From NCBI GenBank assembly GCA_035519135.1, contig DATIWX010000125.1:2576-66575 (forward strand): a stretch of 64,000 nucleotides of DNA, read 5' to 3'. Below the pieces are notes generated by a model. That model did not search any database. It saw only the letters and a program-made list of their open reading frames with translations, and had not been told where the DNA came from. Numbering within the stretch: the stretch's first letter is position 1; each line of letters begins with the position of its first letter. The translations under genes were made by a program, and so were the position numbers. Below, piece by piece: positions 26,019 to 59,848 of the stretch. This DNA comes from Burkholderiales bacterium (GTDB lineage: Bacteria; Pseudomonadota; Gammaproteobacteria; Burkholderiales; SG8-39).

Positions 26019-26031
26019 CCTAGAATCGAGA

Positions 26032-28760: not shown

Positions 28761-28827
28761 TTGTCGCCCGCGATCGCAGACATTGTCATTCCGAAAGCGC
28801 AAGCCCGAGGAATCTCAGTACGCACAA

Positions 28828-29646: not shown

Positions 29647-29685
29647 GGTGGATTCTCCGGCGGGGCCTGTGCGACTATAGCAAGG

Positions 29686-33089: not shown

Positions 33090-33296
33090 CTACTTCGCCG
33101 CGTCCTCGCGCGACTGCTGGGATTGCTGCAATTGCTCCATGGCCTGGCCGATCTTCTGCTGAGCCTGGTCCTGGGTCTTCTTGGCCTGCTCGAGCTCCTG
33201 CTTCTTGAGCGCGGCCGCGGTGGCGGCGCTGCTCGCGGTGTCCAGGCCGCAGGCGGAGAGCGCCGCGGCGGCGATCAGGGGGATGAGCCGTTTCAT
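33090..33296 (-). CDS. Small Gln/Lys/Glu-rich helical lipoprotein
   Basis: 68 aa with signal peptide and lipobox 'ALSAC' and an AAGGAG SD site. The remainder is a low-complexity helix ('KKQELEQAKKTQDQAQQKIGQAMEQLQQSQQ'). Confidence 0.6.
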   Translation of the reverse strand: MKRLIPLIAAAALSACGLDTASSAATAAALKKQELEQAKKTQDQAQQKIGQAMEQLQQSQQSREDAAK

Positions 33297-33327
33297 GATC
33301 TGCTCCTTCGAGGAAAAGGGACGTGGA

Positions 33328-34386: not shown

Positions 34387-35345
34387 TGGGCGGGAATCCT
34401 CGCGTCCCTGATCAGCTTGGCGTAGGCCTGCAGGTCGCTCCGGATCAGCGCCGCGAACTCCTCGGGCGTGCCGGTGACGATGTCGTTGCCGCCCTGGACG
34501 GCGATGCGCTCGTGAACGTCGGCCGCGTGCATGGCCTTGACGGTCTCGGCGTTGAGACGGTCGACGATCGCCCTGGGTGTTCCGGCGGGCGCGAGCAGGC
34601 CTTGCCACTGCGAGATGTCGAAGGCCTGGATGCCCGCTTCCTGCAGGGTCGGCACTTCCGGAAGGCTGGACGCACGCTTGGCGCTCGAAACGGCGAAGGC
34701 GCGCAGCTTGCCCGCTCGGATCTGCGGCACCGAGGTGATCACGGTGTCGAACATGAAAGTGAGCTGGCCGCCGAGCAGGTCGGCGAGCGCCGGCGCGCTG
34801 CCCTTGTAGGGCACGTGCGTGAGCTGGGTTCCGGTCGCGAGCGCGAACAGCTCGCCGGCGAGGTGGTTGCCCCCGCCGACCCCGGTGGAGCCGTAGGAGA
34901 GCGCGCCGGGGCGCGCGCGCGCGGCGGCGGCGATGTCGGCGATGCTCTTGTAAGGCGAGCCGGCGAGGGTCACCAGCACGTACTGGTATACGGCGCACTG
35001 GGACACCGGCGCGAAATCCTTCAACGGATCGTAGGGGACCTTGGCGTAGAGGGTCGGGTTGACGACGATCGGGCCGCTTGCGGTCACCAGCAGCGTGTAG
35101 CCGTCGGGGGCGGCCTTGGCGACCAGGTCCGTGCCGATGCCGCCGTTCGCGCCGCCGCGGTTCTCCACGACGAAGGGCTGCCTGAGCGCGTCGCCCAGCT
35201 TCTGGGCCAGGGTACGGCCGAGAATGTCGGCGTTGCCCCCGGCCGCATAGGGAACGACGATGCGCACCGGCTTGGCCGGATAGTCCTGGCCCGATGCGGC
35301 GGAGGAAAACACGGCGGTTGCGACTGCGGCGAGGAGGATTTTCAT
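34383..35345 (-). CDS. Bug/TctC-family substrate-binding protein
   Basis: 320 aa with a signal peptide and 'YPAKPVRIVVPYAAGGNAD'. Confidence 0.9.
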   Translation of the reverse strand: MKILLAAVATAVFSSAASGQDYPAKPVRIVVPYAAGGNADILGRTLAQKLGDALRQPFVVENRGGANGGIGTDLVAKAAPDGYTLLVTASGPIVVNPTLYAKVPYDPLKDFAPVSQCAVYQYVLVTLAGSPYKSIADIAAAARARPGALSYGSTGVGGGNHLAGELFALATGTQLTHVPYKGSAPALADLLGGQLTFMFDTVITSVPQIRAGKLRAFAVSSAKRASSLPEVPTLQEAGIQAFDISQWQGLLAPAGTPRAIVDRLNAETVKAMHAADVHERIAVQGGNDIVTGTPEEFAALIRSDLQAYAKLIRDARIPAQ

Positions 35346-35417
35346 GAATCGGGCGTGCGATGTTCGCGGGCCTACAGGCTATCATATGCGGCGCGGGCCA
35401 ATCCTGGAGCCGGAGCG

Positions 35418-35831
35418 ATGAGCGCAGACATCAAGATGTTCAACCCCGACACGTTGGGCCAGCCGGCCGGGCAGTATTCGCACATCGCCCGCGTCAGGGG
35501 AGCAGGCGAGCTGGTATTCATCGCCGGGCAGATCGCCGTGGACAAGGCGGGGAATGCGGTCGGGGCGGACGATTTCGATGCGCAATGCCGCCAGGTGTAC
35601 GCCAATATCGAAGCCGCGCTCAAGTCGGCCGGAGCCGGCTGGAGGAACGTGGTGCAGTTCACGACCTACCTGGTGCATTCGCAGGACATCTCGAAATTGC
35701 GCGCCTTCCGCCAGCGCGAGTTCCCGCGGTACTTCCCGGACGGGGCCTATCCGCCGAACACGCTCCTCGTCGTGGACCGCCTCGCGAGCGAATCGTACCT
35801 GCTGGAAATCCAGGCGGTGGCAGCGCTGTGA
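35418..35831 (+). CDS. RidA/YjgF-family reactive-intermediate deaminase
   Basis: 137 aa from the ATG at 35418. The 'YSHIARVRGAGELVFIAGQIA...NIEAALKSAGAGWRNVV' pattern fits YjgF/UK114. Confidence 0.88.
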   Translation: MSADIKMFNPDTLGQPAGQYSHIARVRGAGELVFIAGQIAVDKAGNAVGADDFDAQCRQVYANIEAALKSAGAGWRNVVQFTTYLVHSQDISKLRAFRQREFPRYFPDGAYPPNTLLVVDRLASESYLLEIQAVAAL

Positions 35832-36790
35832 GACGCCCCCTGCATGCGGCGCTTGCCGCTCTCTGGCTGCTGGCTGCGCCCCAGGCCTTCGCCCAATCCT
35901 ATCCGCAGAAACCGGTACGCTTGATCGTTCCGGCGCCGGCCGGCGGTCCCACCGACGTTCCGGGGCGTCTCATCGCGGACGGCCTGTCGAATCTCACCGG
36001 CCAGCGCTTCGTGATCGAGAACCGGGTGGGCGCGGGCGGCCTGGTGGCCGGGGAGTTCGTGTCGCGCTCGGCGCCCGACGGCTATACGCTGCTCTACGCG
36101 AACACCAGCGTGCTCGCCGTCAATCCGGCGCTCCAGGGCGCCAATATGCCCTACGACCCGGCCAAGGCGTTCGCCCCGATCGGCTTCGTCTCCAATTCGC
36201 CGCAACTGCTGGTCGCCAATCCCAAGGTTCCGTATCGATCGGTGCAGGAGCTCGTCGCCTGGGCGAAGACTCACCCGGGCAAGCTCAACTTCGCCACCGC
36301 CGGTGTGGGGACGCTGCCGCATCTCACTTACGAGCTCTTCAGGATGGAGACGGGCATCGATGCGCTCAACGTGCCCTACTCGGGCGGCGCGCCCGCGCTC
36401 ACCGCGGTGATCGCGGGGCAGGCCGATGTGCTTTTCGACCTGGTGCGTACCCGCGTGAAAAGCGGCGAAGTCCGCGCCATCGCCATCACCGGCTCCGAGC
36501 GCGACCCCGACCTGCCCGACATCCCGACGCTCGCCGAGAGCGGCTATGCCGCCGTGACTTCGACCTCGGGTACGGGCATCGTCTCGCCGGCGGGAATCTC
36601 CGCGGAAATCGTCGCCCTGCTGAACGCCAGGCTGAACGAGCTGCTCAGGCAGCCCGAGACCCAGGCGAAGATGAAATCCTTCGGTCTCGTTCCGAAGTCC
36701 GGCACGCCCGAGGAATTCGGCTCCTGGGCGGCGCAGGAACGGCAGCGCTGGACCCGGGTGGTGAAGGAATCCGGCGCCAAGGCGCAGTAG
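35828..36790 (+). CDS. Bug/TctC-family substrate-binding protein
   Basis: The GTG at 35828 overlaps the RidA stop (GTGA). It has a signal peptide and 'YPQKPVRLIVPAPAGGPTD'. Confidence 0.85.
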   Translation: MRRPLHAALAALWLLAAPQAFAQSYPQKPVRLIVPAPAGGPTDVPGRLIADGLSNLTGQRFVIENRVGAGGLVAGEFVSRSAPDGYTLLYANTSVLAVNPALQGANMPYDPAKAFAPIGFVSNSPQLLVANPKVPYRSVQELVAWAKTHPGKLNFATAGVGTLPHLTYELFRMETGIDALNVPYSGGAPALTAVIAGQADVLFDLVRTRVKSGEVRAIAITGSERDPDLPDIPTLAESGYAAVTSTSGTGIVSPAGISAEIVALLNARLNELLRQPETQAKMKSFGLVPKSGTPEEFGSWAAQERQRWTRVVKESGAKAQ

Positions 36791-36797
36791 GGAAGGT

Positions 36798-37805
36798 ATG
36801 GCGAAACTCGCAGCGGCATTCGGTTCCTCCCACAGCGTGATGCTCGCCGCCGAGCTCCAGGACTGGCTGCGCGGGTTCCGGCAGAGCGACCTGCGCATGA
36901 AATTCTACGACCGCGAGGGCAGGCCGCGCTCGTACGCGGAGGTGCTCGCTCAGGCGCCCGCGAACATCGCCGAGCTGGTCGCGGACGACGCCGTCACCGC
37001 GCGCTACCGCCAGGTACAGGAAGCGATGAAGCGCATGCGCGCGGAGATTGCGCAGGCGAAGCTCGATGCGCTGGTGATCGTCGGGGACGACCAGCACGAG
37101 CTCTTCCAGGACCAGCACATGCCCTCGATCGGGATCTACTACGGCGAGAGCATCCGCAACGCGGCGCGCGCCAATGCGAAGCGCTTCACCTGGCCGGAGG
37201 AGTGGTACAACCGCGCGCAGATGCGCCGCTACGAGGACGAGGCCGACGCCGACTATCCCTGCCACAGGCCGCTTGCCCTGAGGCTCATCGAGGGCCTGAT
37301 CGAGCGCGAGTTCGACGTCGCCGCGGTCGCGGGCCTAGGCGAGGCGTCAAGCGAAGGCCACGCCTACTCCTTCGTGCACCGCTGGTACCTGAAAGGCGAC
37401 GGCGCGCGCATGCTGCCGGTCGTCCCGATCTTCCTCAATACCTACAATCCTCCCAACCCGCCGCTGCCCCGGCGCTGCGTGAAGTTCGGCAAGGCGCTGA
37501 AGGAGCTGATCGAGAGCTATCCGGAGGACCTGCGCATCGGCGTGCTCGCCTCCGGGGGCTTGAGCCACTTCGTCGTCGAGGAGGAGCTCGACCATGCGGT
37601 GATCGAGGCGCTCCGGAAGAAGGACCTCGATTTCCTCGGCAGCCTCGATCCGCGCCAGTTGAAGGCGGGCAGCTCCGAGATCCGCAACTGGATCGTGGTG
37701 GCGAGCGCTGCGACGCACCTGGATCTGAAGTGGATTTCCTATACGCCTTCGTACCGGACACCGGCGGGGACCGGCATCGGGCTGGGCTTCGCGAGCTGGA
37801 GCTGA
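36798..37805 (+). CDS. Class III (LigB-type) extradiol ring-cleavage dioxygenase, single-subunit form
   Basis: 335 aa. It has the N-terminus 'MAKLAAAFGSSHS', then 'LVIVGDDQHE' and 'VLASGGLSHFV', typical of LigB/MhpB-type enzymes. Confidence 0.85.
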   Translation: MAKLAAAFGSSHSVMLAAELQDWLRGFRQSDLRMKFYDREGRPRSYAEVLAQAPANIAELVADDAVTARYRQVQEAMKRMRAEIAQAKLDALVIVGDDQHELFQDQHMPSIGIYYGESIRNAARANAKRFTWPEEWYNRAQMRRYEDEADADYPCHRPLALRLIEGLIEREFDVAAVAGLGEASSEGHAYSFVHRWYLKGDGARMLPVVPIFLNTYNPPNPPLPRRCVKFGKALKELIESYPEDLRIGVLASGGLSHFVVEEELDHAVIEALRKKDLDFLGSLDPRQLKAGSSEIRNWIVVASAATHLDLKWISYTPSYRTPAGTGIGLGFASWS

Positions 37806-37807
37806 GC

Positions 37808-38938
37808 GTGGGGCCTTTCCGCGCCGATCAGGTCGGCAGCCTGCTGCGCGCGCCCGAGCTGCGCGCGGCCCATGAAAAATCCCTGCAGGGGCGGTACGGC
37901 GCGGCGGCGCTGCGCGAGCTGCAGGACCGCTGCATCCGCGACGTGATCCGGATGCAGGAGTCGGTCGGCCTGCAGGCGATCACCGACGGCGAATACCGGC
38001 GCACCTCGTTCCACGCCGATTTCATCGAGAAGCTGGACGGCGCACGAGCCGCCGGACGCCTGGACGTGAAGGACACCGTGAGCGGCTTCGATGCGAAGAA
38101 GGAAGAAAGCGGCAAACCCTTCGCACCGCGCGCCTTCGCGATCACGGGAAAGCTGCGCCATTCGCGCCCCATCGAGGTGGACAACTTCAAGTTCGTGAAG
38201 GCGAACACCCGCCGCACCGCAAAGCAGACCATGCCCTCGCCGACCATGCTCCTGCGCGGGGGCCGGGCGGCGGTGAGCAAGGAGGCCTACCCGGAGCTGG
38301 AGGAATTCCACGCCGACATCGTCCAGGTCTACCGGGAAGAGCTGCGGCAACTCGGCGAGGCCGGCTGCCGCTACGTACAGCTCGATGACACCAATTTCGC
38401 ATTTCTCTGCGACCCCAAGCTTGCCGAGACTTATCGTCGCGACGGCTACGATCTGGCGCGGCTGCCCGGACAATTCGCCGACCTGATCAATTCGGCGATC
38501 GCCGGCCGCCCGGCCGGGATGGCCGTCGGCATCCATATCTGCCGGGGCAACTCGGTAGGGCAGTGGGCGGCCCGCGGCGGCTACGAGCCGGTGGCCGAAG
38601 TGCTGCTGGGGCAGCTCGGCGTGGACGCGTACTTCCTGGAATACGACGACGAGCGTTCCGGAGGCTTCGAGCCCCTGCGTTTTCTGCCAAAGGGCTCGCC
38701 CAAGCGCGTCGTGCTCGGCCTGGTGAGCACCAAGGTCCCCGTGGTGGAGCCGAAGGACGTGCTGAAGCGGCGCATCGAGGCGGCGGCGAGGGTCGTGCCC
38801 CTGGAGAACCTGTGCCTGAGCCCGCAGTGCGGATTCGCCAGCACCTTCCGCGGCAATCCGATTTCGGAAGATGTGCAGCGCCGCAAACTGGAGCGCGTGG
38901 TGGAGGTTGCGAGCGAAGTCTGGGGTACGACTCTGTAA
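37808..38938 (+). CDS. Short (single-barrel) MetE-family zinc alkyltransferase-like protein
   Basis: 376 aa. The GTG at 37808 lies 2 nt after the LigB-like stop. Motifs include 'FRADQVGSLLRP', 'ITDGEYRR', and the Zn-site pattern 'IHICRGN ... YFLEYDD ... SPQCGFAS'. Confidence 0.85.
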   Translation: MGPFRADQVGSLLRAPELRAAHEKSLQGRYGAAALRELQDRCIRDVIRMQESVGLQAITDGEYRRTSFHADFIEKLDGARAAGRLDVKDTVSGFDAKKEESGKPFAPRAFAITGKLRHSRPIEVDNFKFVKANTRRTAKQTMPSPTMLLRGGRAAVSKEAYPELEEFHADIVQVYREELRQLGEAGCRYVQLDDTNFAFLCDPKLAETYRRDGYDLARLPGQFADLINSAIAGRPAGMAVGIHICRGNSVGQWAARGGYEPVAEVLLGQLGVDAYFLEYDDERSGGFEPLRFLPKGSPKRVVLGLVSTKVPVVEPKDVLKRRIEAAARVVPLENLCLSPQCGFASTFRGNPISEDVQRRKLERVVEVASEVWGTTL

Positions 38939-39109
38939 GGAATCCGAAAGTACTTTCAGCCGCAAGGCGTTACCCCGCGTGCTTGAAGAAGCACATTCAA
39001 TTGCTCGCCGCAGAGCTTGCTTTTTGCGCAATGCGAGTCTTTACCTCGCGTTTCGCGCAGTGTAGATTGACGCTCCCCCGATACAAGAACACGACAGTCC
39101 GAGTCCGAA

Positions 39110-40159
39110 ATGGCGTTAGAGCGGTCAGGCGCCGCAGTCGCGCGGCGACAGTCTTCCGGAGCTGAAGAGAGCGCACGCCTTTCCGCCCTGCGCGGCTACT
39201 GCGTCCTCGACACCGGACGCGAGGCGCGCTTCGACGACCTGACCTGCCTCGCGGCGAGCATCTGCGAGACGCCGCTTTCCCTTGTGAGCCTGGTCGATAC
39301 GAACCGGCTGTTCTTCAAGTCCGCGCACGGCATGGACATCCGGGAGGTTCCCTATCCGGATTTCTTCTGCGGCTACGCCATCCGCCAGCGCGATGTCTTC
39401 GTCGTTCCCGATGCCTCCCTGGATCCACGCTTCGCGAATCATCCTCTGGTGGCCGACCAGCCGCGCGTGCGTTTTTACGCCGGAGCGCCGCTGGTCACAC
39501 CGCAGGGCCACGCGCTGGGGACCCTGTGCGTGGCCGATTTCGTCCCGCGGCAGCTCGATTCCAAGCAGCTCGAGACGCTGCGCATCCTCGCCCGGCAGGC
39601 GATGTGCCAGCTGGAGCTGAATCTGCAGGCGATGCGCGACCCGCTTACCGGGATGTACAACCGGCGCCAGCTGGAGGAGAGCCTGCATCGCGAAGTGCTG
39701 CGCGCGCGCCGCATCGGGGCGCCGGTCGGAGTCATGGCGATAGACGTGGACCATTTCAAGAGGGTGAACGACACGCTGGGACACGAGGTGGGCGACAGCG
39801 CGCTGCGCGGAATCGCCGAGGAGCTCGCTTCGTGCGTACGCGAGGAAGACATTGCTTGCCGGGCCGGCGGAGAGGAGTTCGTCATCATTCTTCCGGGGAC
39901 GGGGAAGACGGCCCTGCGATCGCGCGCCGAGGCGGTGCGCAGGACGATCGAGCAGGCGAGCATCCAGGCGGAAGGGGGAACGATCAAGCTGACTGTTTCG
40001 ATAGGGCTCGCGAGCTTTCCCTCCTACGGCGACAGCGGGCAGGCGGTGCTGCGCGCCGCCGATATCGCCCTGTACAAGGCGAAAGCGGCGGGCCGGAATC
40101 GCGTGATCATGTGCGCGCCGAACAGCGTGCGCAGCTCGTCGCCGGCCAAAGCGGCGTAA
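39110..40159 (+). CDS. GAF-domain diguanylate cyclase (GGDEF)
   Basis: 349 aa. The N-terminal GAF-like domain ('RFYAGAPLVTPQGHALGTLCV') is followed by 'DPLTGMYNRR' and the active site 'RAGGEEFVIIL'. Confidence 0.88.
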   Translation: MALERSGAAVARRQSSGAEESARLSALRGYCVLDTGREARFDDLTCLAASICETPLSLVSLVDTNRLFFKSAHGMDIREVPYPDFFCGYAIRQRDVFVVPDASLDPRFANHPLVADQPRVRFYAGAPLVTPQGHALGTLCVADFVPRQLDSKQLETLRILARQAMCQLELNLQAMRDPLTGMYNRRQLEESLHREVLRARRIGAPVGVMAIDVDHFKRVNDTLGHEVGDSALRGIAEELASCVREEDIACRAGGEEFVIILPGTGKTALRSRAEAVRRTIEQASIQAEGGTIKLTVSIGLASFPSYGDSGQAVLRAADIALYKAKAAGRNRVIMCAPNSVRSSSPAKAA

Positions 40160-40255
40160 AATCGGTCTCCAGTTTCGAATCCTTCGCTCGGTCGCCGGGG
40201 AGCTTTCTCCCGGGCGATTCGACGCGCGTTTTCCGACCAAACCGGAGGAAGGCTG

Positions 40256-42553
40256 ATGGCTAAGGGTTTCAAGGGCCGGCGCGAAGACCTGAGGCTGGTC
40301 ACGGGGCAGGGCAAGTACACCGCCGACTGGAACCTGCCCGGACAGCTCTACGGCTATTTCCTGCGCTCCGACCGGGCGCACGCCGAGATCGTCTCGATCG
40401 ATACGGCTCAGGCGTCGAAGGCGCCCGGCGTGCTCGCGGTCTTCACCGGCGCCGACACCGCGAAAGCGGGATTCAAGTCCACGCCGAACATCGCGCGCTA
40501 TCCCGGGCGCGGCGGAGCGACCATCAAGGTGCCGCACCGCGACGGCCTCGCGAACGGCCGCGTGCGTTTCGTCGGCCAGGAAGTCGCGCTGGTGGTCGCG
40601 GCCAGCGCATTTGCGGCCCAGGATGCCGCGGAAAGAATCGAAATCGATTACCGCGACCTGCCGGTGGTCGTGGACGCCGAGGCGGCACTCGTGCCCGGCT
40701 CGGAGCAGCTCTTTCCGGAAATTCCGGGCAACCTGTGCTTCGACTACGAATACGGCGACGAGGCGAAGACGGCGGAAGCCTTCTCGCGCGCAAGCCACGT
40801 GACGCGCATCGAGCTCGACAGCCAGCGCATGGTCGGCAACCCGATGGAGCCGAAAGCCTGCCTGGCTGCGTACGACGCGGCGGCCGACCAATACCATCTC
40901 TACGCCAGCTCCCAGGGACTTTCGCTGATGCGCGGCAGCGCGAGCGGCATCACCGGAGTTCCGGCGGAAAAGATCATGGTCCACGCGCAGGATGTGGGCG
41001 GCGGCTTCGGCATCCGCTCCGACGCCTACAGCGAGTATTGCGTGGCGATGCTCGCGGCCAAGTCGCTGGGAAAGCCGGTGAAGTGGACCTCGACGCGCTC
41101 CGAGACCTTCGTTTCGGACTTTCACGGCCGCGCGGCGAAACTCGTCGGCGAGCTCGCTCTCGACCGGGAGGGGCGCTTCCTCGCCATCCGCATCCACTGG
41201 TTCGTGAACATGGGAGCCTACCTGTCCTCGCCGGGCGCGCTCATCAACACCCTGCCGCCGGGGCTGCACGCGGTGAACCTGTACCGCATTCCGGTGATGT
41301 ACGGGCGGCACCGCCTCGCGCTCACCAATACCACGCCGACCACGGCCTACCGCGGAGCGGGTCGTCCCAATGTGTGCTATCTCGCCGAGCGCCTGGTCGA
41401 GGAGGCGGCTCGCGAGATGAAGATCGACCGGATCGAGCTGCGCCGCCGCAACCTCATTCCGAAGGACGCCTTTCCCTACCAGACGCCGCACCCGCACTCG
41501 GTGTACGACAGCGGCGATCCGCCCGGGCTGCTCGATGAGGCGCTCGCGCAGGGGGAATGGAAGACCTTCGAGTCGCGTCGCGCCGAGGCGAAGAAGCGCG
41601 GCAAGCTGCGCGGCATCGGCTGCTCCGTCTTCGTCGAGCCGGCCGGGGCGGGAGGCGCGCCCAAGGAAGAGGCGATGATCAAGTTCGGCGAGTCGGGCAG
41701 CGCGCTGCTCTACGTGCTCGCCGGCCCCTCGGGGCAGGGCCACGAGACGGTCTACCCGGAAGTCGTCGGCGAGGCGCTCGGAATGGATCCGGAGAGGATC
41801 ACGCTGCGCGCGAGCGATCCGGACGGGCCGAAGCTCATCGGGGAGGGCACCATAGGCTCGCGCTCGATGATGGCGCACGGCGGCTCGCTTCTGGTCGCGG
41901 CGCGCGAAGTGATACGCAAGGGTACCGAGCTTGCGGCCAAGGATCTGGAGGTGGCGCCGGGCGATCTGGAGTTCAGGCAGGGCCGCTACCGGGTGAAGGG
42001 AACGGACATTTCAGTGGGCGTCGAGGATCTCGCCAAGAAGCATCCGGGGGCGCTCGACTCGGGCGGCGAGATTCCCTTGCCGCGCTCCTTTCCGAGCGGC
42101 GCCCATGTGGCCGAGGTCGAGGTCGATCCGGACACGGGCGTGGTGGCGCTCCTGCGCTACACGGCGGTGGACGATTGCGGCCGGGTCATCAACCACGTAC
42201 TCCTCGACGGCCAGCTGCATGGCGGCATCGCGCAGGGCATAGGGCAGGTGATGGGCGAGCACGCGATCTACGACAAGGACAGCGGACAGCTGCTGACGGG
42301 CACGTTCATGGACTACGAGATGCCGCGCGCCGACGGCATGCCGGAGATACGGTTGGTCGACCGCTCGATCCCTTCGCCGGGCAACCCGCTCGGCGTGAAG
42401 GGCGCAGGGGAGGCGGGGACGACCGGTGCCGTGCCGGCGGTGGCGAACGCCGTGATCGACGCGCTGCGGCACCTCGGCATCAATACGCTGGACTTTCCCT
42501 ACACGCCCGATCGCGTGTGGCACGCGATCGGGAAGGCGAGAGGGAAGGGCTAG
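40256..42553 (+). CDS. Xanthine-dehydrogenase-family molybdopterin-binding large subunit (CoxL/aldehyde-oxidase-like)
   Basis: 765 aa with a GGAGGAAGG SD site. It has an a/b-hammerhead N-terminus, 'DVGGGFGIRSD', 'TAYRGAGRP' and a C-terminal 'GVKGAGEAGT'. Confidence 0.9.
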   Translation: MAKGFKGRREDLRLVTGQGKYTADWNLPGQLYGYFLRSDRAHAEIVSIDTAQASKAPGVLAVFTGADTAKAGFKSTPNIARYPGRGGATIKVPHRDGLANGRVRFVGQEVALVVAASAFAAQDAAERIEIDYRDLPVVVDAEAALVPGSEQLFPEIPGNLCFDYEYGDEAKTAEAFSRASHVTRIELDSQRMVGNPMEPKACLAAYDAAADQYHLYASSQGLSLMRGSASGITGVPAEKIMVHAQDVGGGFGIRSDAYSEYCVAMLAAKSLGKPVKWTSTRSETFVSDFHGRAAKLVGELALDREGRFLAIRIHWFVNMGAYLSSPGALINTLPPGLHAVNLYRIPVMYGRHRLALTNTTPTTAYRGAGRPNVCYLAERLVEEAAREMKIDRIELRRRNLIPKDAFPYQTPHPHSVYDSGDPPGLLDEALAQGEWKTFESRRAEAKKRGKLRGIGCSVFVEPAGAGGAPKEEAMIKFGESGSALLYVLAGPSGQGHETVYPEVVGEALGMDPERITLRASDPDGPKLIGEGTIGSRSMMAHGGSLLVAAREVIRKGTELAAKDLEVAPGDLEFRQGRYRVKGTDISVGVEDLAKKHPGALDSGGEIPLPRSFPSGAHVAEVEVDPDTGVVALLRYTAVDDCGRVINHVLLDGQLHGGIAQGIGQVMGEHAIYDKDSGQLLTGTFMDYEMPRADGMPEIRLVDRSIPSPGNPLGVKGAGEAGTTGAVPAVANAVIDALRHLGINTLDFPYTPDRVWHAIGKARGKG

Positions 42554-42557
42554 GCTT

Positions 42558-44222
42558 TCACTTCGCCGGTTTCGATCCGGATTGCCGGGACGCGCCGGCG
42601 ACGAGGATCTCCGTCAGCACCCGTCCTTCGCTTCCCGAAGGCGGCTGCGTCTCGAGCAGGGCGGCGAGCGTCGGCGCGAGATCGACCACTTCGGCATAGC
42701 CTGCGTAGGATCCGGCGCGTATCCAGGGACCGCCGTAGAGCATGAGCGGCACGTTGGTGTCGTACGCATAGGGAGATCCGTGGGTCGCGGCGTTGCTGCC
42801 GAACATCGCGTAAGCGCGCTGTACCACGTACAGGTCCCCGCTCAGCTGGCGGTGCCACGCCCGCTGAACCAGCGTGCCCAGACGGCCGGGAAGCGCTCCA
42901 CCCTCGAGCTGTGTGCGCGTGTATACGGCGGCGATGCCCGGATAGTCGCCAACGATGCGCGCGGCAGCCGACTCCACTTCGGCGGCGGCGAGCTTCTTCT
43001 CCTCGATCAGCTTGCGGTCGAGAATGATCGTGGGGTACGAGTAGCGGAGCGCGTAGGCTCCCGCGCCGAAGCGCGCCGCGAGCTTCTCGTTCAGGTCCGC
43101 GAGCAGCTTGCGCGAATCGATATGCACTCCGGCGAAACCCTTCGACGAGCTGTACTCGGGTGCGTTCAGGAATCCGTGATCCGCGGTGAGCGCGATCAGC
43201 ACCTTGTCCGGTCCGAAGCGCTTCGTGAGGTAGCCGAAGAAAGAGGCAAGCGAGCGGTCGAGCTGCAAGGCGTGGTCCTGGGACTCACGGCTCTCCGGGC
43301 CGAATGCGTGGTTGACGTAATCGTGCGTCGAGAGGCTGACGCCCAGGAGATCGGGCACGCCGGCGGGGTTCCTGCCGAGGCTCTCGCCCTCGATCGCAGC
43401 GCGCGCGAACTCGAGCGTGGCCTCGTCGCCGTAGGGAGTCCTGATGAGCGCGCCGTAGTAGGCGGCGTCGGGCTTCCCGGGACCGCCCGGCAGGGCGAAG
43501 GGAAAGCGGTTTCCCATGCCGCGATAGTTCAGGAACCAGGGCTGGCCGTCGGCGATCGAGCGCGCGTACGCGGCCTCCGGCAAGGCGAGCGTCCAGGACT
43601 TTCCCAGCCAGCGGTCCTGAGGGCGGCCCGAGTAGAAGGTTTCCCACCAGCGCGGGTGCTCCTTCATGTAATAGGTGCTGCTCGCGAAGCGGCCGCTCCT
43701 GTCCATGTACATGTACGCGGTACCCGTCTTCCCGGCGAGCAGGATCGCGCCGCGGTCCTTGCCGGAAACCGTGAGAACCTTGGACTGCCCGCCGTTCGCA
43801 TAGCGCAGCTCGTCGCCCAGGGTACTGACGCGCAGGTTCGCGGGCGAGGTCCCGTCGAGCTTCTTCGTCTCCTCGCCAATGTAAGTGTGGGCGGGATCGC
43901 CGGTGCAGTAGGTCTCCGCGAGCGTCCTGGGATCGATCCACTCGTTGGCGATGATCCCGCTCTGGTAGGGGTAGGCGCCGCTGAGCACGGCCGTGTGCCC
44001 GGGCGCCGTAAGCGTCACCGCGTGCGCATGGTGGGCGTTGCCGAACCAGGCGCCTTTCTGCAGCAGCAAGTTGAAGCCGCCGGGCCCGAATTGGTCGCGG
44101 TACCTGAGGACCTGCTCCTGCGGCAGGCCGTCGATCACGATCACGACGACGAGCTTGGGCGCCGCGGCTGCGGCGGCGAAGGAGGCGAGCCCGAGAAGCA
44201 GCAGGAGGAAGGTGCGCCGCAC
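42558..44222 (-). CDS. Secreted alkaline-phosphatase-superfamily enzyme (PafA / nucleotide pyrophosphatase-phosphodiesterase-like)
   Basis: 554 aa with a signal peptide. Motifs include 'VVIVIDGLP' and the Thr-nucleophile motif 'TLTAPGHTAVLSG', plus 'LTADHGF'. It starts 2 nt after the MetE-like stop. Confidence 0.88.
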   Translation of the reverse strand: MRRTFLLLLLGLASFAAAAAAPKLVVVIVIDGLPQEQVLRYRDQFGPGGFNLLLQKGAWFGNAHHAHAVTLTAPGHTAVLSGAYPYQSGIIANEWIDPRTLAETYCTGDPAHTYIGEETKKLDGTSPANLRVSTLGDELRYANGGQSKVLTVSGKDRGAILLAGKTGTAYMYMDRSGRFASSTYYMKEHPRWWETFYSGRPQDRWLGKSWTLALPEAAYARSIADGQPWFLNYRGMGNRFPFALPGGPGKPDAAYYGALIRTPYGDEATLEFARAAIEGESLGRNPAGVPDLLGVSLSTHDYVNHAFGPESRESQDHALQLDRSLASFFGYLTKRFGPDKVLIALTADHGFLNAPEYSSSKGFAGVHIDSRKLLADLNEKLAARFGAGAYALRYSYPTIILDRKLIEEKKLAAAEVESAAARIVGDYPGIAAVYTRTQLEGGALPGRLGTLVQRAWHRQLSGDLYVVQRAYAMFGSNAATHGSPYAYDTNVPLMLYGGPWIRAGSYAGYAEVVDLAPTLAALLETQPPSGSEGRVLTEILVAGASRQSGSKPAK

Positions 44223-44224
44223 GG

Positions 44225-45259
44225 CTAGCCCGCGATCTCCTTGCGCACCTGCGCCGCGCCCGTGGCCAGGGCTCTCAGCTTACCCGCCGCGACTTCGCGC
44301 GCGAGCGGCACCATGCCGCAGTTGGTGCACGGGTAAAGCTTCTCCGCAGGCACGAATTTCATGGCGGCGCGGATGGTCGCGGCGACCTGCTCCGGTTTCT
44401 CGACGGCCTCGCTCGCCACGTCGATCGCGCCCACCATCACGTCCTTGCCCTTGAGCAGGGCGAGCAGCTCGAGCGGCACGTGCGAGTTCGCGCATTCGAG
44501 GGAGACCTGGTCGATCTTCGACCCGGCGAGCAGGGGAAAGGTGGATTCGTACTGGCGCCACTCCGAGCCCAGGGTCTTCTTCCAGTCGTTGTTCGCCTTG
44601 ATGCCGTAGCCGTAGCAGATGTGCACCGCGCTCTTGCATTTCAACCCGGCGGCCGCGGTCTCGAGCGCGGCGACGCCCCAGTCGCGCACTTCGTCCATGT
44701 AGACGTTGAATGCCGGCTCGTCGAACTGGATCACGTCCGCGCCGGCGCGTTCGAGCTCGCGCGCTTCCTGGTTTAGGATGGCGGCGAATTCGCGCGCCAG
44801 CTTCTCGCGGCTGCGGTAGTGATCGTCGTAGAGCGTATCCACCATGGTCATCGGACCGGGCAGGGTGGCCTTGATGGGCCGGCGGGTCTGGGAGCGCAGG
44901 TAGCGGATGTCCTCCACGTAGACCGGCCGCTTGCGGGCGACCTCGCCGACTACGACGGGAACATCGGCGTCGTAGCGGTTGCGGATGCGGACCGTGCGCT
45001 TGTGCTCGAAGTCCACGCCTTCGAGGCTTTCGATGAAGGTGGTGACGAAGTGCCGGCGGGTCTGCTCGCCGTCGGTGACGATGTCGATGCCGGCGGATTC
45101 CTGGTCGGCCAGCACCAGCCGCATCGCGTCGCGCTTGCCTTCTTCGAGCAGCGCGCCCTCGAGCAACCAGGGGGCCCAGAGCTTTTTCGGTTCGGCGAGC
45201 CACGCCGGCTTGGGCAGGCTGCCGGCGATCGTGGTCTGAAGCAAGTCGTTCCCGGTCAA
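44225..45259 (-). CDS. Short (single-barrel) MetE-family zinc alkyltransferase-like protein
   Basis: 344 aa. The TTG start overlaps the LigB-like stop (TTGA). Motifs include 'TTIAGSLPKPAWL', 'VTDGEQTR', and the Zn-site pattern 'VHICYGYG ... VSLECAN ... PCTNCGM'. Confidence 0.85.
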   Translation of the reverse strand: MTGNDLLQTTIAGSLPKPAWLAEPKKLWAPWLLEGALLEEGKRDAMRLVLADQESAGIDIVTDGEQTRRHFVTTFIESLEGVDFEHKRTVRIRNRYDADVPVVVGEVARKRPVYVEDIRYLRSQTRRPIKATLPGPMTMVDTLYDDHYRSREKLAREFAAILNQEARELERAGADVIQFDEPAFNVYMDEVRDWGVAALETAAAGLKCKSAVHICYGYGIKANNDWKKTLGSEWRQYESTFPLLAGSKIDQVSLECANSHVPLELLALLKGKDVMVGAIDVASEAVEKPEQVAATIRAAMKFVPAEKLYPCTNCGMVPLAREVAAGKLRALATGAAQVRKEIAG

Positions 45260-46092
45260 GCGCGGGCGCCTAGGTTCCAGGAGGCGAAGCCGCAGCCGAC
45301 GTAGACCTCGGGGCAGTTGCAGTAGCCGATCAGCTCGAATCCGCGGCGGCCGGCGGCACCGTGCGCCGCGACCCAGTTGCGGATCTCGGCCGCGCCGTTA
45401 CCGATGGTGGGAAGGCGTTCGTTCAGGAAGTCGACCAGGCTGCGCTCGTCGCCGGCTTCGAAATGGCGGATGCATTCGCGGTCGAAGGGTTCGTCGATCT
45501 CGCCCATCGTCGGCTCGCCGATCGAGTGGCTCAAGCCGCCCGTCGCGAGAAGCGCGACGCGAATATCCTCCGGGTAGGTACGCACCGCCTCCGCGAGCAT
45601 CGAACCCCATTGCAGGCAGCGCCGCACCGTCGGATAGGGCGGCTCGAGGTCGTTGAAGATGATCGGCACGATCGGGGGCAGGGGATCGAGCCCGCCCCGC
45701 CACAGCGGGATGCAGAAGCCGTGATCGAGGGTCAGGCGGTGAGACATCGACGGCTCGAAATCGCGCTCGAGCGCGGTCTCGATGATGTGGTGGGCGAGCT
45801 TGGGATGGCCCTTGATCTTCTTGTAGGGGCAGTCCTTCATCCACGGCTCGGCCGGACCGTCGTGCTCCTCGCCCATCCCGACGCAGATGCTCGGCAGGTT
45901 GTTGATGAAGAAATTGACCCAGTGATCGGGAGCGATCTCGATGAGCACGTCGGGCTTCGCCGCCTTGATGCGGCCGCCGATCTCGGTCATCGAGCGGGTC
46001 AGGGCGTCCTTGTTTGCCGCGCTCACGTCCTTCCAGCCGCGGATGATGAGCGGGGCGTGGCTGGAGGCGAATACGCCGACGAGCTTAGCCAT
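45256..46092 (-). CDS. Class III extradiol dioxygenase catalytic subunit (LigB-like)
   Basis: 278 aa. Motifs include 'MAKLVGVFASSHAP', 'VLIEIAPDHW' and 'LLATGGLSHSIG'. Confidence 0.88.
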   Translation of the reverse strand: MAKLVGVFASSHAPLIIRGWKDVSAANKDALTRSMTEIGGRIKAAKPDVLIEIAPDHWVNFFINNLPSICVGMGEEHDGPAEPWMKDCPYKKIKGHPKLAHHIIETALERDFEPSMSHRLTLDHGFCIPLWRGGLDPLPPIVPIIFNDLEPPYPTVRRCLQWGSMLAEAVRTYPEDIRVALLATGGLSHSIGEPTMGEIDEPFDRECIRHFEAGDERSLVDFLNERLPTIGNGAAEIRNWVAAHGAAGRRGFELIGYCNCPEVYVGCGFASWNLGARA

Positions 46093-46366
46093 GGCTGGAC
46101 CGCGCGGCCGACTCGGCTCCGGCGTTGCGCACTTTCTTCAGGAACTCGGTCTCGGGCATGCCGACGACGACGAAATAGAACCGCAGCAGGTAGGGATTGA
46201 CCCGCGCGGCGAGGAACACCACGTCATCGCGCTCGACCGCCTTGCGCACCTCCGGCTTGAGGGGATAGCGGTCGAGGATCTTCTTCCTGTCCGCGCGGTA
46301 CTCCTCGCCGAGGGGAGGAGAGCTCTGAAGATCGAAAAAAAGCTTGCTCAGCCAATAATCTCTCAT
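46085..46366 (-). CDS. LigA-like small subunit of extradiol dioxygenase
   Basis: 93 aa, overlapping the LigB-like start by 8 nt. The pattern 'YWLSKLFFDL...EEYRADRKKILDRYPLKPEVRKAVERDD...VNPYLL' parallels the protocatechuate 4,5-dioxygenase alpha chain. No obvious SD site. Confidence 0.7.
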   Translation of the reverse strand: MRDYWLSKLFFDLQSSPPLGEEYRADRKKILDRYPLKPEVRKAVERDDVVFLAARVNPYLLRFYFVVVGMPETEFLKKVRNAGAESAARSSHG

Positions 46367-46394: not shown

Positions 46395-47132
46395 TCAATT
46401 GCCGCGCTCGCGGGTCAGCGGCACGAATCTTACCGGCAGGGTCCGCCGGGTGGTGGTCTTTCCGTCGGCCTGCTTGTGCACGAGCAGCAGTTCCTGCGCG
46501 TAGAACATTTCCCCGACAGGGATCACCATTCTCCCGCCGGGCTTGAGCTGGTCGATCAAGGGCTGCGGAACCGCCGCCGGCGCCGCGGTGACGATGATGG
46601 CGTCGAATGGCGCGGCCGCCGGCCAGCCGCCGTAGCCGTCCCCCACGCGCACCTCGATGTTGCGGTACCCCAGCTCGTGGAGCACCTTGGCAGCACGCTT
46701 GCCGAGCGGCTCGACGATTTCGATCGTGTACACCTTCGCGACGAGCTCGGCGAGCACTGCGGCCTGGTAGCCGGAGCCGGAGCCGACCTCGAGCACCGTG
46801 TCCGAGGGCTTCGGATCGAGCAGCTCCGTCATCAGCGCGACGATATAGGGCTGCGAGATCGTCTGGCCCTCGCCGATGGGAAGCGGGCGGTTCTCGTAGG
46901 CGAACGGCTCCTGCGAGGAAGGAACGAAGCGGTGGCGTGGCACCTTGCCCATCGCCGACATCACCGTATCGCTGAACTTCGGCCGCCCGGTTTCCCCGCC
47001 GGTTACGCGGGCCTCGGCGGCGATCTCCGCCACCATGCGCGCCCGCGCCTCCGCGTGTAGATCCTGGGCGCCAGAGGGTGGTCCCTGCGTGAGGCCGATC
47101 ATGGCCAGCGCGGATACGAGAATGGCCCGCAT
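46395..47132 (-). CDS. pcm: Protein-L-isoaspartate O-methyltransferase with a hydrophobic N-terminal (signal-like) extension
   Basis: 245 aa. Motifs include 'GEGQTISQPYIVALM', the SAM motif 'VLEVGSGSGYQAA' and 'GGRMVIPVG'. The N-terminus is 'MRAILVSALAMIGLTQG'. Confidence 0.88.
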   Translation of the reverse strand: MRAILVSALAMIGLTQGPPSGAQDLHAEARARMVAEIAAEARVTGGETGRPKFSDTVMSAMGKVPRHRFVPSSQEPFAYENRPLPIGEGQTISQPYIVALMTELLDPKPSDTVLEVGSGSGYQAAVLAELVAKVYTIEIVEPLGKRAAKVLHELGYRNIEVRVGDGYGGWPAAAPFDAIIVTAAPAAVPQPLIDQLKPGGRMVIPVGEMFYAQELLLVHKQADGKTTTRRTLPVRFVPLTRERGN

Positions 47133-47145: not shown

Positions 47146-47844
47146 TCAAGCCATCACCAGGCTGGTAAGACGCTGCGGATCGGCGAGGAGGTCGGCGCTG
47201 GGACCGCTGTAGGCGATTCGGCCGCGGTTCAGAACCAGCGCGTCCTGCGTCACCTCGAGCGCGAGCTTGGCGTGCTGCTCGACCAGCATGACCGCGAGCG
47301 AGTCCTCGCGGATCAGCCGCTGCAGGGCCTGCAGCAGCACCTCGACGATGATCGGGGCGAGCCCCTCGAGCGGTTCGTCCATGAGGAGCAGCGTCGGGTT
47401 GCCCATCAGGGCACGGCCGATGGCGAGCATCTGCTGCTCGCCACCCGAGATCTGGTTACCCCAGTGCTTGCGACGGTCCGCGAGCCGGGGGAAGAGATCG
47501 TGGACGCGCTCCAGGGTCCAGCGCCCGGGCCTAGCCGCGACCGTGAGGTTCTCCTCGACCGAGAGCGAAGGAAAGATGTCGCGGGTCTGGGGGACCAGAC
47601 CCACCCCCAGCCGGTTGCGCTCGTAGACGGGCAGCTTCTCGATGCGCGCGCCGCGGTACTCGATGCTCCCGGTATGGAAAGTCGTGTGGCCCATGATCGT
47701 AGCCAGCAGTGTAGTCTTCCCCACACCGTTGCGCCCGAGAACGGCGAGCGAGCCGCGCTCCGGAAGCGAGAGCCCGATGTCCTCGATGACCACGGTCTCG
47801 CCGTAGCCCGCGCGAACATCCTTGAGGCGGAGCGCGTCAGCCAT
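47146..47844 (-). CDS. ABC transporter ATP-binding protein, LivF-like
   Basis: 232 aa. It has the Walker A motif 'GRNGVGKTT', the signature 'ISGGEQQML' and the Walker B motif 'LLLMDEP'. Confidence 0.9.
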   Translation of the reverse strand: MADALRLKDVRAGYGETVVIEDIGLSLPERGSLAVLGRNGVGKTTLLATIMGHTTFHTGSIEYRGARIEKLPVYERNRLGVGLVPQTRDIFPSLSVEENLTVAARPGRWTLERVHDLFPRLADRRKHWGNQISGGEQQMLAIGRALMGNPTLLLMDEPLEGLAPIIVEVLLQALQRLIREDSLAVMLVEQHAKLALEVTQDALVLNRGRIAYSGPSADLLADPQRLTSLVMA

Positions 47845-48589
47845 GGCGCTGCTCGCCGAGATAGACCTGGTGCACGCGCCTGTCTTTCCCGATCTCGTCG
47901 GGCGTGCCTTCCACCAGCACCTCGCCCTGCACCAGCACCGTGATGCGCTGCGCGAAGCGGAACACCAGGTCCATGTCGTGCTCGATGATCAGGATGGCAA
48001 TGTCCTTGGGAAGCCTGTCCAGCACCTCGAGGATGCGGTGCGACTCGAGCGAAGGCACGCCGGCAGCCGGCTCGTCGAGCAGGAGCACGCGCGGTCTCAG
48101 GCCGAGGGCGATCGCGATTTCCACCAGGCGCTGCTTGCCATAGGGCAGGTCGAGAATCCGCTGCCCCGAATCGTCGGCGAGCCCCAGGGTCGCGAGCAGC
48201 TCCATCCCTTCGCTGCATACCTCGGCGTGGGCACTCGCGGCGCGCAGCATCTTGGGGGCAACGCCCCGGCGTTCGGCAACGGCGAGCGCCACGTTATCGA
48301 GCACGGACAGCCGGCGGAACAGGGCGTTGATCTGGAACGTCCGGCCGAGGCCGCGCTTCACGCGCTTGGCCTGCCCCAGCGCGGTGATGTCCTCTCCGCC
48401 GAGCACGATTTTCCCGGAGGAGGGCGGCAGCACGCCGGTGAGCATGTTGACGAAGGTCGTCTTTCCGGCGCCGTTCGGACCGATGAGGGCGTGGCGCGCG
48501 CCGGGCTCGAGGCGGAAATCGATTCGGTCGGCCACGGTGAGCGCGCCGAAGGCTTTGCACAGCGCGTGCGTCTCCAGGGCGGCGCTCAC
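47837..48589 (-). CDS. ABC transporter ATP-binding protein, LivG-like
   Basis: The GTG start at 48589 (GGAGGAAGG SD) overlaps the permease stop. It has the Walker A motif 'GPNGAGKTT' and 'LLLDEPAAG'. Confidence 0.88.
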   Translation of the reverse strand: MSAALETHALCKAFGALTVADRIDFRLEPGARHALIGPNGAGKTTFVNMLTGVLPPSSGKIVLGGEDITALGQAKRVKRGLGRTFQINALFRRLSVLDNVALAVAERRGVAPKMLRAASAHAEVCSEGMELLATLGLADDSGQRILDLPYGKQRLVEIAIALGLRPRVLLLDEPAAGVPSLESHRILEVLDRLPKDIAILIIEHDMDLVFRFAQRITVLVQGEVLVEGTPDEIGKDRRVHQVYLGEQRHG

Positions 48590-49563
48590 GCCTTCCTCCG
48601 CAATCTCGCGATCAGCCCATCGAGGATTCCGAGAATCCCGCCGCGCGCGAACATGACCACCAGCACCAGCATGGTCCCGATGCCGAAGTACCAGTACTCG
48701 GGAAATTGCTTGGCGAGCAGATCCTGGGCGATGAGATACACCACGGGCCCGACGAACGCCCCGTAGATGCGCCCGACGCCCCCGAGGATCAGCATCACCA
48801 GCAGCTCGCCCGCCGACTCGAACGAGAGCACGTTGAGGCCGACGAACTGGTTCGTCTGGGTGATCAACCCTCCGGCGACGCCGGCGATCGTGGCCGAAAG
48901 CGTATACACCAGCACCAGCCGCCAGTAGACCGGAGCGCCGATGGCGTGCATGCGCAGGCTGTTTTCGCGCACTCCGGTCAGGGAAGTGCCGAAGGGCGAG
49001 TAGATGATCTTTCTCACCAGCCACCAGCCTATGAGCAGCACCACCAGGCAATAGAGGTACGCCGTCTTGCCGTAGATGTCGAACCTGAACAGGCCGAGGA
49101 TCGGTGCGATGACGACGCCGGAGAGGCCGTCGGCGCCGCCGGTGAGGCTCGAAGCCTTGTTGGCGATCTCCAGCAGCACGGAGGTGATCGCGAGCGTCAG
49201 CATGAGCAAGGTGAGCGCCCGGGTCCTGAGAATGATCGCGCCGGTTGTCAGGCCGAGCAGGGCGCCGGCCGCCGCCGCGGCGGCGAGCTGGACCATCGGG
49301 TCGGCGATCGCCGCCTTGGCGGCGAGTATTCCGGCGACGTAGGCGCCCAGGCCGAAGTAGGCGCTATGGCCCAGCGTAATAATTCCGGCGTAGCCGACGA
49401 TCAGATCGAGCGACAGCGCGTAGAGCATGTAGATCAGGATGCGCGCGCCGAGCGAGAGATACTCCGGCAGCAGGAAGAAGGCCGCGAGCGCGACAATCCA
49501 CGGCAGCCACTCGATGCGGCGGATGCGCGGATCGGCGCTGTAGCCTCCGGCGTGGGTGCTCAT
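48586..49563 (-). CDS. Branched-chain-amino-acid-type ABC permease, LivM-like
   Basis: 325 aa from the ATG at 49563 (ATGA overlap with the LivH-like stop). It is polytopic, with 'LDLIVGYAGIITLGHSAYFGLGAY'. Confidence 0.88.
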   Translation of the reverse strand: MSTHAGGYSADPRIRRIEWLPWIVALAAFFLLPEYLSLGARILIYMLYALSLDLIVGYAGIITLGHSAYFGLGAYVAGILAAKAAIADPMVQLAAAAAAGALLGLTTGAIILRTRALTLLMLTLAITSVLLEIANKASSLTGGADGLSGVVIAPILGLFRFDIYGKTAYLYCLVVLLIGWWLVRKIIYSPFGTSLTGVRENSLRMHAIGAPVYWRLVLVYTLSATIAGVAGGLITQTNQFVGLNVLSFESAGELLVMLILGGVGRIYGAFVGPVVYLIAQDLLAKQFPEYWYFGIGTMLVLVVMFARGGILGILDGLIARLRRKA

Positions 49564-50435: not shown

Positions 50436-50468
50436 TGAAGGCGCCCTCGCGAGTGAGTCAGGTACCGC

Positions 50469-50509
50469 AAATGAACAAACCCCGCGCCACGTCCAGGCGT
50501 GGCGCGGGG
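50469..50509 (-). terminator. Strong stem-loop plus T-rich tail between the binding-protein gene and the permease genes (intra-operon terminator/attenuator)
   Basis: A perfect 12-bp GC-rich stem (50480-50491 pairs with 50498-50509) has a 6-nt loop. On the minus strand it is followed by TTTGTTCATTT. Confidence 0.55.
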
Positions 50510-50525
50510 CGGCCGGTCTGCCGAC

Positions 50526-57112: not shown

Positions 57113-57128
57113 GGGCGCCAACCGCGAC

Positions 57129-59196: not shown

Positions 59197-59235
59197 CGAT
59201 GACCGCGGTTCGTGGAAAAAACGGCAGGACGAGCG

Positions 59236-59835: not shown

Positions 59836-59848
59836 AGGGTCTCCATAT

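Follow-up and report, generated by a model that had tools for sequence, protein, structure and literature searches.

According to genetic evidence, methionine is made without methyl-folate or vitamin B12 by MesD, a family named by Price, Deutschbauer and Arkin (2021; PMC7857596). In its canonical form the enzyme works only with O2 and with MesX, a DUF1852 protein, and no methyl donor has been assigned to it (PMC7857596). Our literature search found no later mechanistic paper (post-2021) on the donor or on the O2 requirement and no biochemical characterisation of the YxjG/PRK06520 subfamily; as the initial annotation of the DNA studied here had already supposed, the literature searched held no link between a LigB enzyme and a MetE-like enzyme. 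Here we describe a 64,000-nucleotide (nt) stretch from a Burkholderiales bacterium (GTDB lineage SG8-39; assembly GCA_035519135.1, contig DATIWX010000125.1, positions 2,576 to 66,575), called the window below, in which two genes for LigB-type extradiol dioxygenases are each followed directly, on the same strand, by a MetE-family gene. One of the two is a mesD gene without a neighbouring mesX. The finding is a lineage-specific operon arrangement made of known families, and its most likely reading, to which we give about an even chance of being right, is clade-specific co-transcription of independently working enzymes.

Compared with the MesD/MesX system (PMC7857596; PDB 3RPD), the MesD of the window (MesD2) has the same Zn ligands, the same Ser/Glu/Asp binders and the same length, and it likewise has no folate-binding domain, but no DUF1852/MesX gene lies upstream of it or within the 64 kb, and ligA-ligB stand in that slot. 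The second MetE-family protein (MetE1) has the same Zn and homocysteine motifs as the YxjG/YxjH-type "cobalamin-independent methionine synthase II family" (Listeria 1YPX; PRK06520, PRK06233), whose members in other organisms, unlike MetE1, have unrelated neighbours and no LigB gene. Both proteins have the C-terminal catalytic barrel and the Zn site in common with canonical two-domain MetE, whereas they are without its Meth_synt_1 barrel and are scored far under the cut-offs by the MetE equivalog models. On the dioxygenase side, LigB2 has the fold, the His/His/Glu Fe(II) site and the catalytic His of LigAB protocatechuate 4,5-dioxygenase, DesB gallate dioxygenase and CarBaBb, and a small overlapping open reading frame (ORF) lies upstream of it in the position of LigA/CarBa. 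In contrast to these enzymes, LigB1 has Gln for the second His ligand, and LigC/I/J/K-type downstream genes are not nearby.

Results and Discussion

Organization of the Two Gene Pairs

A check of the window ORFs found the genes of both modules where the initial annotation had placed them, including the two junctions. Module 1 lies on the + strand, where LigB1 (36798-37805; 335 amino acids, aa), a protein with the class III extradiol dioxygenase fold in a single subunit, is separated from MetE1 (37808-38938), a 376-aa core MetE-like protein, by the 2-nt spacer of a TGA-GC-GTG junction. Module 2 lies on the - strand, where the end of LigA2 (46085-46366), a putative small (alpha) subunit of 93 aa, overlaps by 8 nt the start of LigB2 (45256-46092), the 278-aa catalytic subunit of a CarBb/LigB-like two-subunit class III enzyme, and LigB2 is joined to the 344-aa MesD2 (44225-45259) by a 4-nt TTGA start/stop overlap. 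The G+C content of the window is about 67%, and because of its strong bias in G+C at third codon positions (GC3) the frames of the modules were preferred over many shadow ORFs. Both modules are tightly packed pairs that are probably co-transcribed.

The LigB and Meth_synt_2 assignments of the initial annotation held in the Pfam profile search. LigB2 scored 115 bits and LigB1 49.7 bits against LigB (PF02900, gathering cut-off 26.3), the latter a weak match that is still over the cut-off, and MesD2 and MetE1 scored 136.5 and 66.4 bits against Meth_synt_2. The LigA call was the weak one, because LigA2 scored 23.8 bits, just below the PF07746 cut-off of 25.3. The description of the modules as diverged paralogues was also borne out, as LigB1 and LigB2 are about 27% identical (hhalign probability 99.8% over the full length) and MetE1 and MesD2 about 24%, which is not the picture of a fresh duplication. 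The further suggestion that the adjacency had been selected is less well founded, since it would have to rest on one origin per pair, in one syntenic block of one lineage.

The MetE-like Proteins

By profile and alignment, MesD2 and MetE1 belong to two different core methionine-synthase subfamilies. MesD2 matched NCBIfam PRK09121 with 604 bits (cut-off 392) and PDB 3RPD, a protein of the same length, with 536 bits. It is about 70% identical to the MesD proteins of Acinetobacter, Pantoea, Vibrio and Cupriavidus (69.9% to that of A. baumannii) and about 70-76% identical to proven methionine synthases; compared with 3RPD and A. baumannii MesD, it lies above the limit of at least 55% identity (390 bits) to a characterised MesD by which Price et al. 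(2021) delimited the family (PMC7857596). MetE1 matched NCBIfam PRK06520 with 375.8 bits (cut-off 313) and PDB 1YPX with 290 bits over residues 2-374, that is, over its full length.

[quoted passage not shown] The H-x-C...E...C Zn-site motifs quoted there are present and survive profile alignment, with the ligands His-x-Cys, Glu and Cys of both proteins aligning column for column with those of proven MesD and MetE. Its view of the two proteins as generic Zn-dependent thiol alkyltransferases had to be narrowed to one MesD and one YxjG/PRK06520-type protein, both with the homocysteine binders kept. Because the alignment shows the Ser/Glu/Asp binders of homocysteine's amino-acid part retained in both, their thiol is almost certainly homocysteine, and MetE1 is presumed to be a homocysteine S-methyltransferase.

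These data bear on the capture of a reactive ring-fission product by a thiol, the second hypothesis of the initial annotation. In this reading a Zn-activated thiol would add to a product of the muconate-semialdehyde type, much as epoxyalkane:coenzyme M (CoM) transferase opens an epoxide. The MetE family does include that transferase, which alkylates a thiol with a non-methyl electrophile, and the dioxygenase and MetE-like genes are adjacent and tightly spaced. Such a capture is nevertheless highly improbable: as a near-orthologue of proven methionine synthases, MesD2 keeps every homocysteine and Zn residue, and its pocket is unchanged, with no substitution specific to the LigAB-linked MesD clade that would reshape it for a bulky electrophile. 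The pairing is also unconserved beyond one clade, as detailed below. A descent of both pairs from one ancestral LigB-MetE pair, with adjacency selected ever since, would agree with the same gene order in both pairs and with the full-length homology of their members. Sequence identity contradicts it, since MesD2 resembles MesX-linked MesD from other classes (about 70% identity) far more closely than it resembles MetE1 (about 24%). An old conserved pair should moreover be widespread, yet for all four genes the closest relatives stand without the partner, and this descent is barely credible.

The Dioxygenases

LigB2, with LigA2, is by sequence a CarBaBb/LigAB-like two-subunit class III dioxygenase. 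In phmmer it matched the LigB chain 1B4U_B with 92.7 bits, and His61, His127, His195 and Glu242 of that protein align with it, the equivalent of His12 lying outside the alignment; in 21 homologues H11, H56, H123, H188 and E235 of LigB2 are invariant. In LigB numbering the Fe(II) ligands are His12, His61 and Glu242, and His127 and His195 are catalytic. As judged from these residues, LigB2 carries a complete 2-His-1-carboxylate Fe(II) site plus the catalytic His residues. Its identity to characterised enzymes of the LigB and CarBb type is about 30-36%, reaching 36% with the carbazole-pathway meta-cleavage enzyme subunit of Novosphingobium KA1 pCAR3. An exact-sequence look-up of LigB2 returned no record.

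For LigA2 there was no NCBIfam or PDB match, and BLASTP to bona fide LigA gave E = 0.009. A 90-99-aa ORF overlapping the LigB start was present in all of the loci L001-L011 and in the clade loci that retain the upstream flank (L-numbers denote homologous loci obtained by look-ups and scans with the window genes), and in Rhizobium the corresponding gene bears the annotation "subunit of meta cleavage enzyme."

LigB1 differs from LigB2 by an insertion of about 55 aa following the first strand. Its AlphaFold2 (AF2) model (predicted local distance difference test score, pLDDT, 84; predicted template-modelling score, pTM, 0.89) matched DesB, LigB, MhpB and aminophenol dioxygenase with E = 1e-15 to 1e-10, the identity in the alignments with DesB and LigB being about 18%. 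LigB1 has invariant equivalents of His12, His195 and Glu242, and the position of His61 is taken by an invariant Gln99. This residue lies in the sequence GDDQHE (residues 96-101), which across the LigB1 subfamily reads GDDQxE with x = H, Y, A, E or K; the Gln is present also in distant relatives (L096, L097, L098), including members inside aromatic catabolic clusters. An invariant Gln at the second His position suggests a non-canonical metal site in the LigB1 subfamily.

In LigB2 and LigB1 alike, the catalytic residues stay invariant with or without a MetE-like gene downstream. All NCBIfam dioxygenase models, including the substrate-specific ones, scored LigB1 and LigB2 under their cut-offs, and the automatic names "protocatechuate 3,4-dioxygenase," "3-O-methylgallate 3,4-dioxygenase" and [quoted passage not shown] are unsupported by curated NCBIfam cut-offs.

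Distribution of the Pairings

For the MesD side one genome per species was scanned, and 80 loci were analysed by tblastn; as stop-to-stop calling is unreliable in high-GC loci, the genes upstream of MesD were called with a GC3 filter and clustered. LigA-LigB stood upstream of MesD in 13 of the 80 loci, all with a MesD at least 83% identical to MesD2 and all from metagenome-assembled genomes (MAGs) of soil Burkholderiales/Betaproteobacteria, and in several of them module 1 stands about 5 kb off, arranged as in the window. LigB is absent from nearly all of the other loci. With the look-up contigs added, the LigAB-linked MesD genes number 19, of which 18 fall into one clade of a neighbour-joining tree; the nineteenth sits on an error-prone contig.

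A single syntenic block of roughly 17 kb contains both pairings. It was confined to one clade of uncultured soil Burkholderiales and recurs whole in L102, L103 and L191-L193. Among homologues of LigB2 with 79-89% identity, the order ATP-binding cassette (ABC) transporter - (PCMT) - LigA - LigB - Meth_synt_2 is kept, and homologues of LigA2B2 with 65-76% identity keep LigA and LigB but have no MetE-like neighbour. On the side of module 1, L095 (LigB1 75% identity) has the block and module 2 with a small RRM gene in the place of MetE1, and in L092-L094 (70% identity) TctC - LigB1 is followed by unrelated genes. The adjacency of LigB1 to the TctC gene reaches further than that to MetE1, because it is retained in L092, L094, L102, L191 and L193.

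Distant relatives of LigB1 and LigB2 are found in aromatic or N-heteroaromatic clusters with RraA/LigK-like aldolases, amidohydrolases, P450s, FAD monooxygenases and Mo-hydroxylases, and distant relatives of MetE1 adjoin urea transporters and other unrelated genes; members of all four families outside the clade lie apart from one another. The expectation of an adjacency conserved beyond close relatives therefore failed, as the pairing is absent at 65-76% identity and in distant relatives. The refuting condition named in the initial annotation, a lack of the adjacency in other genomes, thus applies by half, since within the clade the pairing is kept except for LigB1-MetE1 in L095. By these comparisons, each pairing arose once and has been inherited inside one syntenic block, and it is no property of the four families. 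In most clade loci the spacing from LigB to the MetE-like gene is -10 to +9 nt, with four exceptions at 19, 43 and 118 nt. One clade member, L019, has a canonical protocatechuate 4,5-cleavage set inserted directly downstream of mesD (7034-10137), comprising Amidohydro_2, LigA (123 bits), a second LigB and a LigC-like oxidoreductase.

Absence of a Nearby MesX

A DUF1852 (mesX) gene lies directly upstream of mesD in five of five annotated replicons (Acinetobacter, Robbsia, Cupriavidus CH34, Novosphingobium and Vibrio), with a gap of 18-28 nt where annotated, the Cupriavidus CH34 case coming from tblastn. In a plasmid and chromid collection MesD gave 220 matches and MesX 210, in nearly the same records and with near-equal counts per genus, and MesX is strongly conserved (67-78% identity across classes). 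With two MesX sequences as queries, tblastn gave no match in the 64-kb window, and the 6 kb around each of the 80 related MesD genes were likewise free of MesX. A metagenome scan with a MesX profile, sampled as the best 80 matches (72-82% identity), had mesD directly downstream in 76 of the 76 loci with enough downstream sequence, and neither an orphan MesX nor a LigB was seen among these best 80 matches. Since no MesX lies near the 80 MesD genes and no orphan MesX was seen, the genomes of the clade may lack MesX; within the best-80 sampling, genomes with MesX-less mesD loci probably hide no canonical mesX elsewhere.

The MesX-less MesD genes are not limited to those linked to LigAB. In 66 species-level MAG loci (among L022-L091), with a MesD 74-81% identical to MesD2, neither MesX nor LigAB is nearby and no LigB lies within 6 kb; in about 50 of them mesD and the genes for a 2-hydroxyacid dehydrogenase and a sugar-type ABC transporter are transcribed in divergent directions. 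Because these 66 members have neither neighbour, the subfamily needs no adjacent LigAB. Eighteen alignment positions set the MesX-less MesD, orphan and LigAB-linked alike, apart from residues that are invariant in MesX-linked MesD, among them R69/Q, A257/H and D273/K (window numbering), A257 lying two residues past the Zn-ligand Glu. The alignment held no MesD substitutions specific to the LigAB-linked clade. The notion that LigAB is a divergent MesX was rejected, as hhalign gave probabilities of 0.4% for LigB2 and 0.3% for LigB1 and BLASTP found no match.

The missing MesX raises the question of a coupling through the methyl donor, in which the dioxygenase would take MesX's O2-dependent role for MesD. 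We consider this possible but rather unlikely. It would explain why, in a family whose canonical members need O2 and MesX (PMC7857596), the clade has ligA-ligB in the slot that mesX holds in the annotated replicons and metagenome loci, with no MesX nearby and no orphan MesX. The second LigB/MetE-like pair repeats the pattern, the spacing is tight across the clade, and downstream ring-fission pathway genes are not nearby. The same role is hard to reconcile with the 66 MesD genes of the same subfamily that have neither MesX nor LigAB, with the lack of residue changes confined to the LigAB-linked MesD, with the single evolutionary origin of each pairing, with the unrelatedness of MesX and LigB and with L095, which does without MetE1.

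A more specific version holds that the LigB-type dioxygenases replace MesX as the O2-dependent methyl supplier of this lineage by making a methyl ester, which in our judgement is clearly unlikely. Extradiol cleavage beside the methoxy group of an O-methylated catechol or gallate (e.g., 3-O-methylgallate) would turn the aryl methyl ether into a methyl ester, a chemistry with precedent in DesZ and LigAB of Sphingobium SYK-6, and the Zn-homocysteine thiolate of MesD or MetE1 would then take the ester methyl to give methionine. This is near the thiol-dependent O-demethylation put forward in the initial annotation, but here cleavage precedes methyl transfer. To our knowledge, no methyl ester is established as a biological methyl donor. 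The "3-O-methylgallate dioxygenase" labels are automatic, and no substrate is assigned to either dioxygenase.

Operon Context of the Modules

Module 1 has the order TctC - LigB1 - MetE1. The TctC/Bug-family periplasmic carboxylate-binding protein gene (35360-36790, +; Pfam TctC 201 bits, aa 203-472) ends 7 nt upstream of LigB1; the coordinates are those of the longest ORF, and, judging from orthologues of about 320-328 aa, translation probably begins near 35.8 kb. Between the modules lie a GAF-GGDEF diguanylate cyclase gene (39110-40159, +; Pfam), found at the same position in L095, L102, L191 and L193, and a gene for the molybdopterin-binding subunit of a xanthine dehydrogenase/aldehyde oxidase family enzyme (40256-42553, +; Pfam MoCoBD_1, MoCoBD_2 and Ald_Xan_dh_C) with conserved synteny. 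This spacer region is part of the conserved block, both genes being common also to several LigAB-linked loci.

Module 2 reads Liv-ABC - PCMT - LigA2 - LigB2 - MesD2 - phosphatase. The Liv-type ABC transporter genes (47146-51716, -; Pfam Peripla_BP_6, two BPD_transp_2 and two ABC_tran genes) comprise a binding protein (50526-51716), two permeases and two ATPases (the LivF-like one at 47146-47844), and this arrangement upstream of the module is kept in the clade loci. The gene for a PCMT-like methyltransferase dependent on S-adenosylmethionine (SAM) (46395-47132, -; Pfam PCMT 215.6 bits, NCBIfam PRK00312 236 bits) ends 28 nt upstream of LigA2; it is found in most clade members, L009 and L010 being without it. 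The PafA-like alkaline phosphatase gene (42558-44222, -; Pfam Phosphodiest, NCBIfam PafA 437 bits, below the cut-off of 650) starts 2 nt past the MesD2 stop. Because both have signal-peptide-like N-termini, the PCMT-like protein and the phosphatase are probably exported, so that tight spacing here also joins products of different compartments; that either is a member of the pathway is doubtful. Such an N-terminus is odd for a SAM-dependent enzyme.

Further observations concern these neighbours. In L008 (2688-3776) PCMT reads through into LigA as one 362-aa ORF in which a Met start for LigA is retained; we did not use this fusion as Rosetta-stone evidence, because the contig has several broken genes and an assembly error is possible. 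The gene after mesD encodes a probably exported alkaline phosphatase of one of two unrelated families, PafA/Phosphodiest in the window, L015, L017 and L193 and PhoA-type PF00245 in L191 and L192. Such an exchange at one fixed place looks like non-orthologous replacement, and it hints at a link between phosphate and the regulation of the operon. A promoter and terminator scan gave nothing beyond shuffled expectation, save a strong 13-bp GC-rich hairpin with a T-rich tail (50510-50479, -), which follows the ABC binding-protein gene, precedes the first permease gene and may be an intra-operon attenuator. Other methionine genes were absent from the window.

Co-transcription as the Favoured Reading

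In the reading that we favour, LigB2 (with LigA2) and LigB1 would cleave a catecholic (hetero)aromatic acid imported by the adjoining binding-protein-dependent transporters. MesD2 and MetE1 would be Zn-dependent homocysteine S-methyltransferases, that is, core methionine synthases, in which homocysteine is activated as a Zn-thiolate and methylated from a donor other than methyl-folate. The dioxygenase and the MetE-like enzyme most likely share no reaction, and each pairing, of single origin in the lineage, would persist as shared transcription with the upstream dioxygenase genes and not as a biochemical pathway. These activities are predicted from family membership and conserved residues.

Independence of the enzymes is favoured for several reasons. 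The pairing decouples outside the clade and once inside it (L095), the enzymes show no partner-specific sequence change, and 66 sister MesD genes lack LigAB. The same tight spacing links obviously unrelated genes, namely the phosphatase at 2 nt and PCMT at 28 nt. Furthermore, no riboswitch connects the operons to methionine or B12 control: a search at the Rfam gathering threshold over the 64 kb found none, and hits at E <= 1 over 33-54 kb were noise.

Several points weigh against co-transcription of unconnected enzymes. With about 5 LigB and 4 Meth_synt_2 genes assumed among about 5000, random gene order would by our estimate give about 4e-3 LigB-Meth_synt_2 pairs per genome, and to find two of them within 8 kb would be very unlikely. 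That chance brought two different MetE-like subfamilies, recruited independently, directly behind two different LigB subfamilies at a distance of 6 kb is improbable. In most of the 19 loci the LigA-LigB-MesD core is intact, its genes spaced at -4 to +9 nt, while the downstream neighbours vary. No ring-fission pathway genes of the LigC/I/J/K or hydrolase/aldolase type were found in the window. Lastly, ligA-ligB hold the mesX slot directly upstream of mesD in this clade, that is, they stand exactly where the partner that canonical MesD needs together with O2 is encoded, and that partner is missing here.

Other Genes in the Window

Eight TctC/Bug-family binding-protein genes lie in the 64 kb (12000-12968, 16915-17877, 24837-26018, 25948-27015, 27750-28802, 34383-35345, 35360-36790 and 51773-52735), an abundance typical of some Burkholderiales lineages; the one at 35360-36790 precedes LigB1 in other loci as well. 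A possible SOS mutagenesis cassette (54026-59922) comprises a gene of the DNA polymerase III alpha type (54026-57394, -), probably the error-prone DnaE2, an overlapping ORF (57129-58694, -) and a LexA gene (59236-59922, -). A 329-aa ORF (33293-34282, -), flanked by a DUF1554-like gene and a TctC gene, was matched by neither Pfam nor NCBIfam and did not pass the GC3 coding filter. The M1-family aminopeptidase encoded at 28744-32337 (+; 1197 aa) has an N-terminal extension of about 350 aa without a domain match.

Conclusion

This window goes beyond the routine in that its MesD belongs to a subfamily without MesX and has an O2-dependent enzyme encoded where mesX would be. Neither the methyl donor nor the O2 requirement of MesD, an aerobic methionine synthase of wide occurrence, has been explained since 2021 (PMC7857596). 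We find a large MesD subfamily of uncultured soil Betaproteobacteria without an adjacent mesX, in one branch of which a dioxygenase stands in that place. If the arrangement is mere co-transcription, it is an ordinary lineage-specific gene order, and its value lies in better annotation, as the proteins are neither MetE nor protocatechuate 3,4-dioxygenases. The question of the MesD donor becomes testable by complementation, with the 18 subfamily-specific residues as targets. If the methyl-ester reading were true, the lineage would have a folate-, B12- and MesX-independent synthesis of methionine fed by lignin-type methoxy groups, and this would point to the kind of donor used by canonical MesD/MesX.

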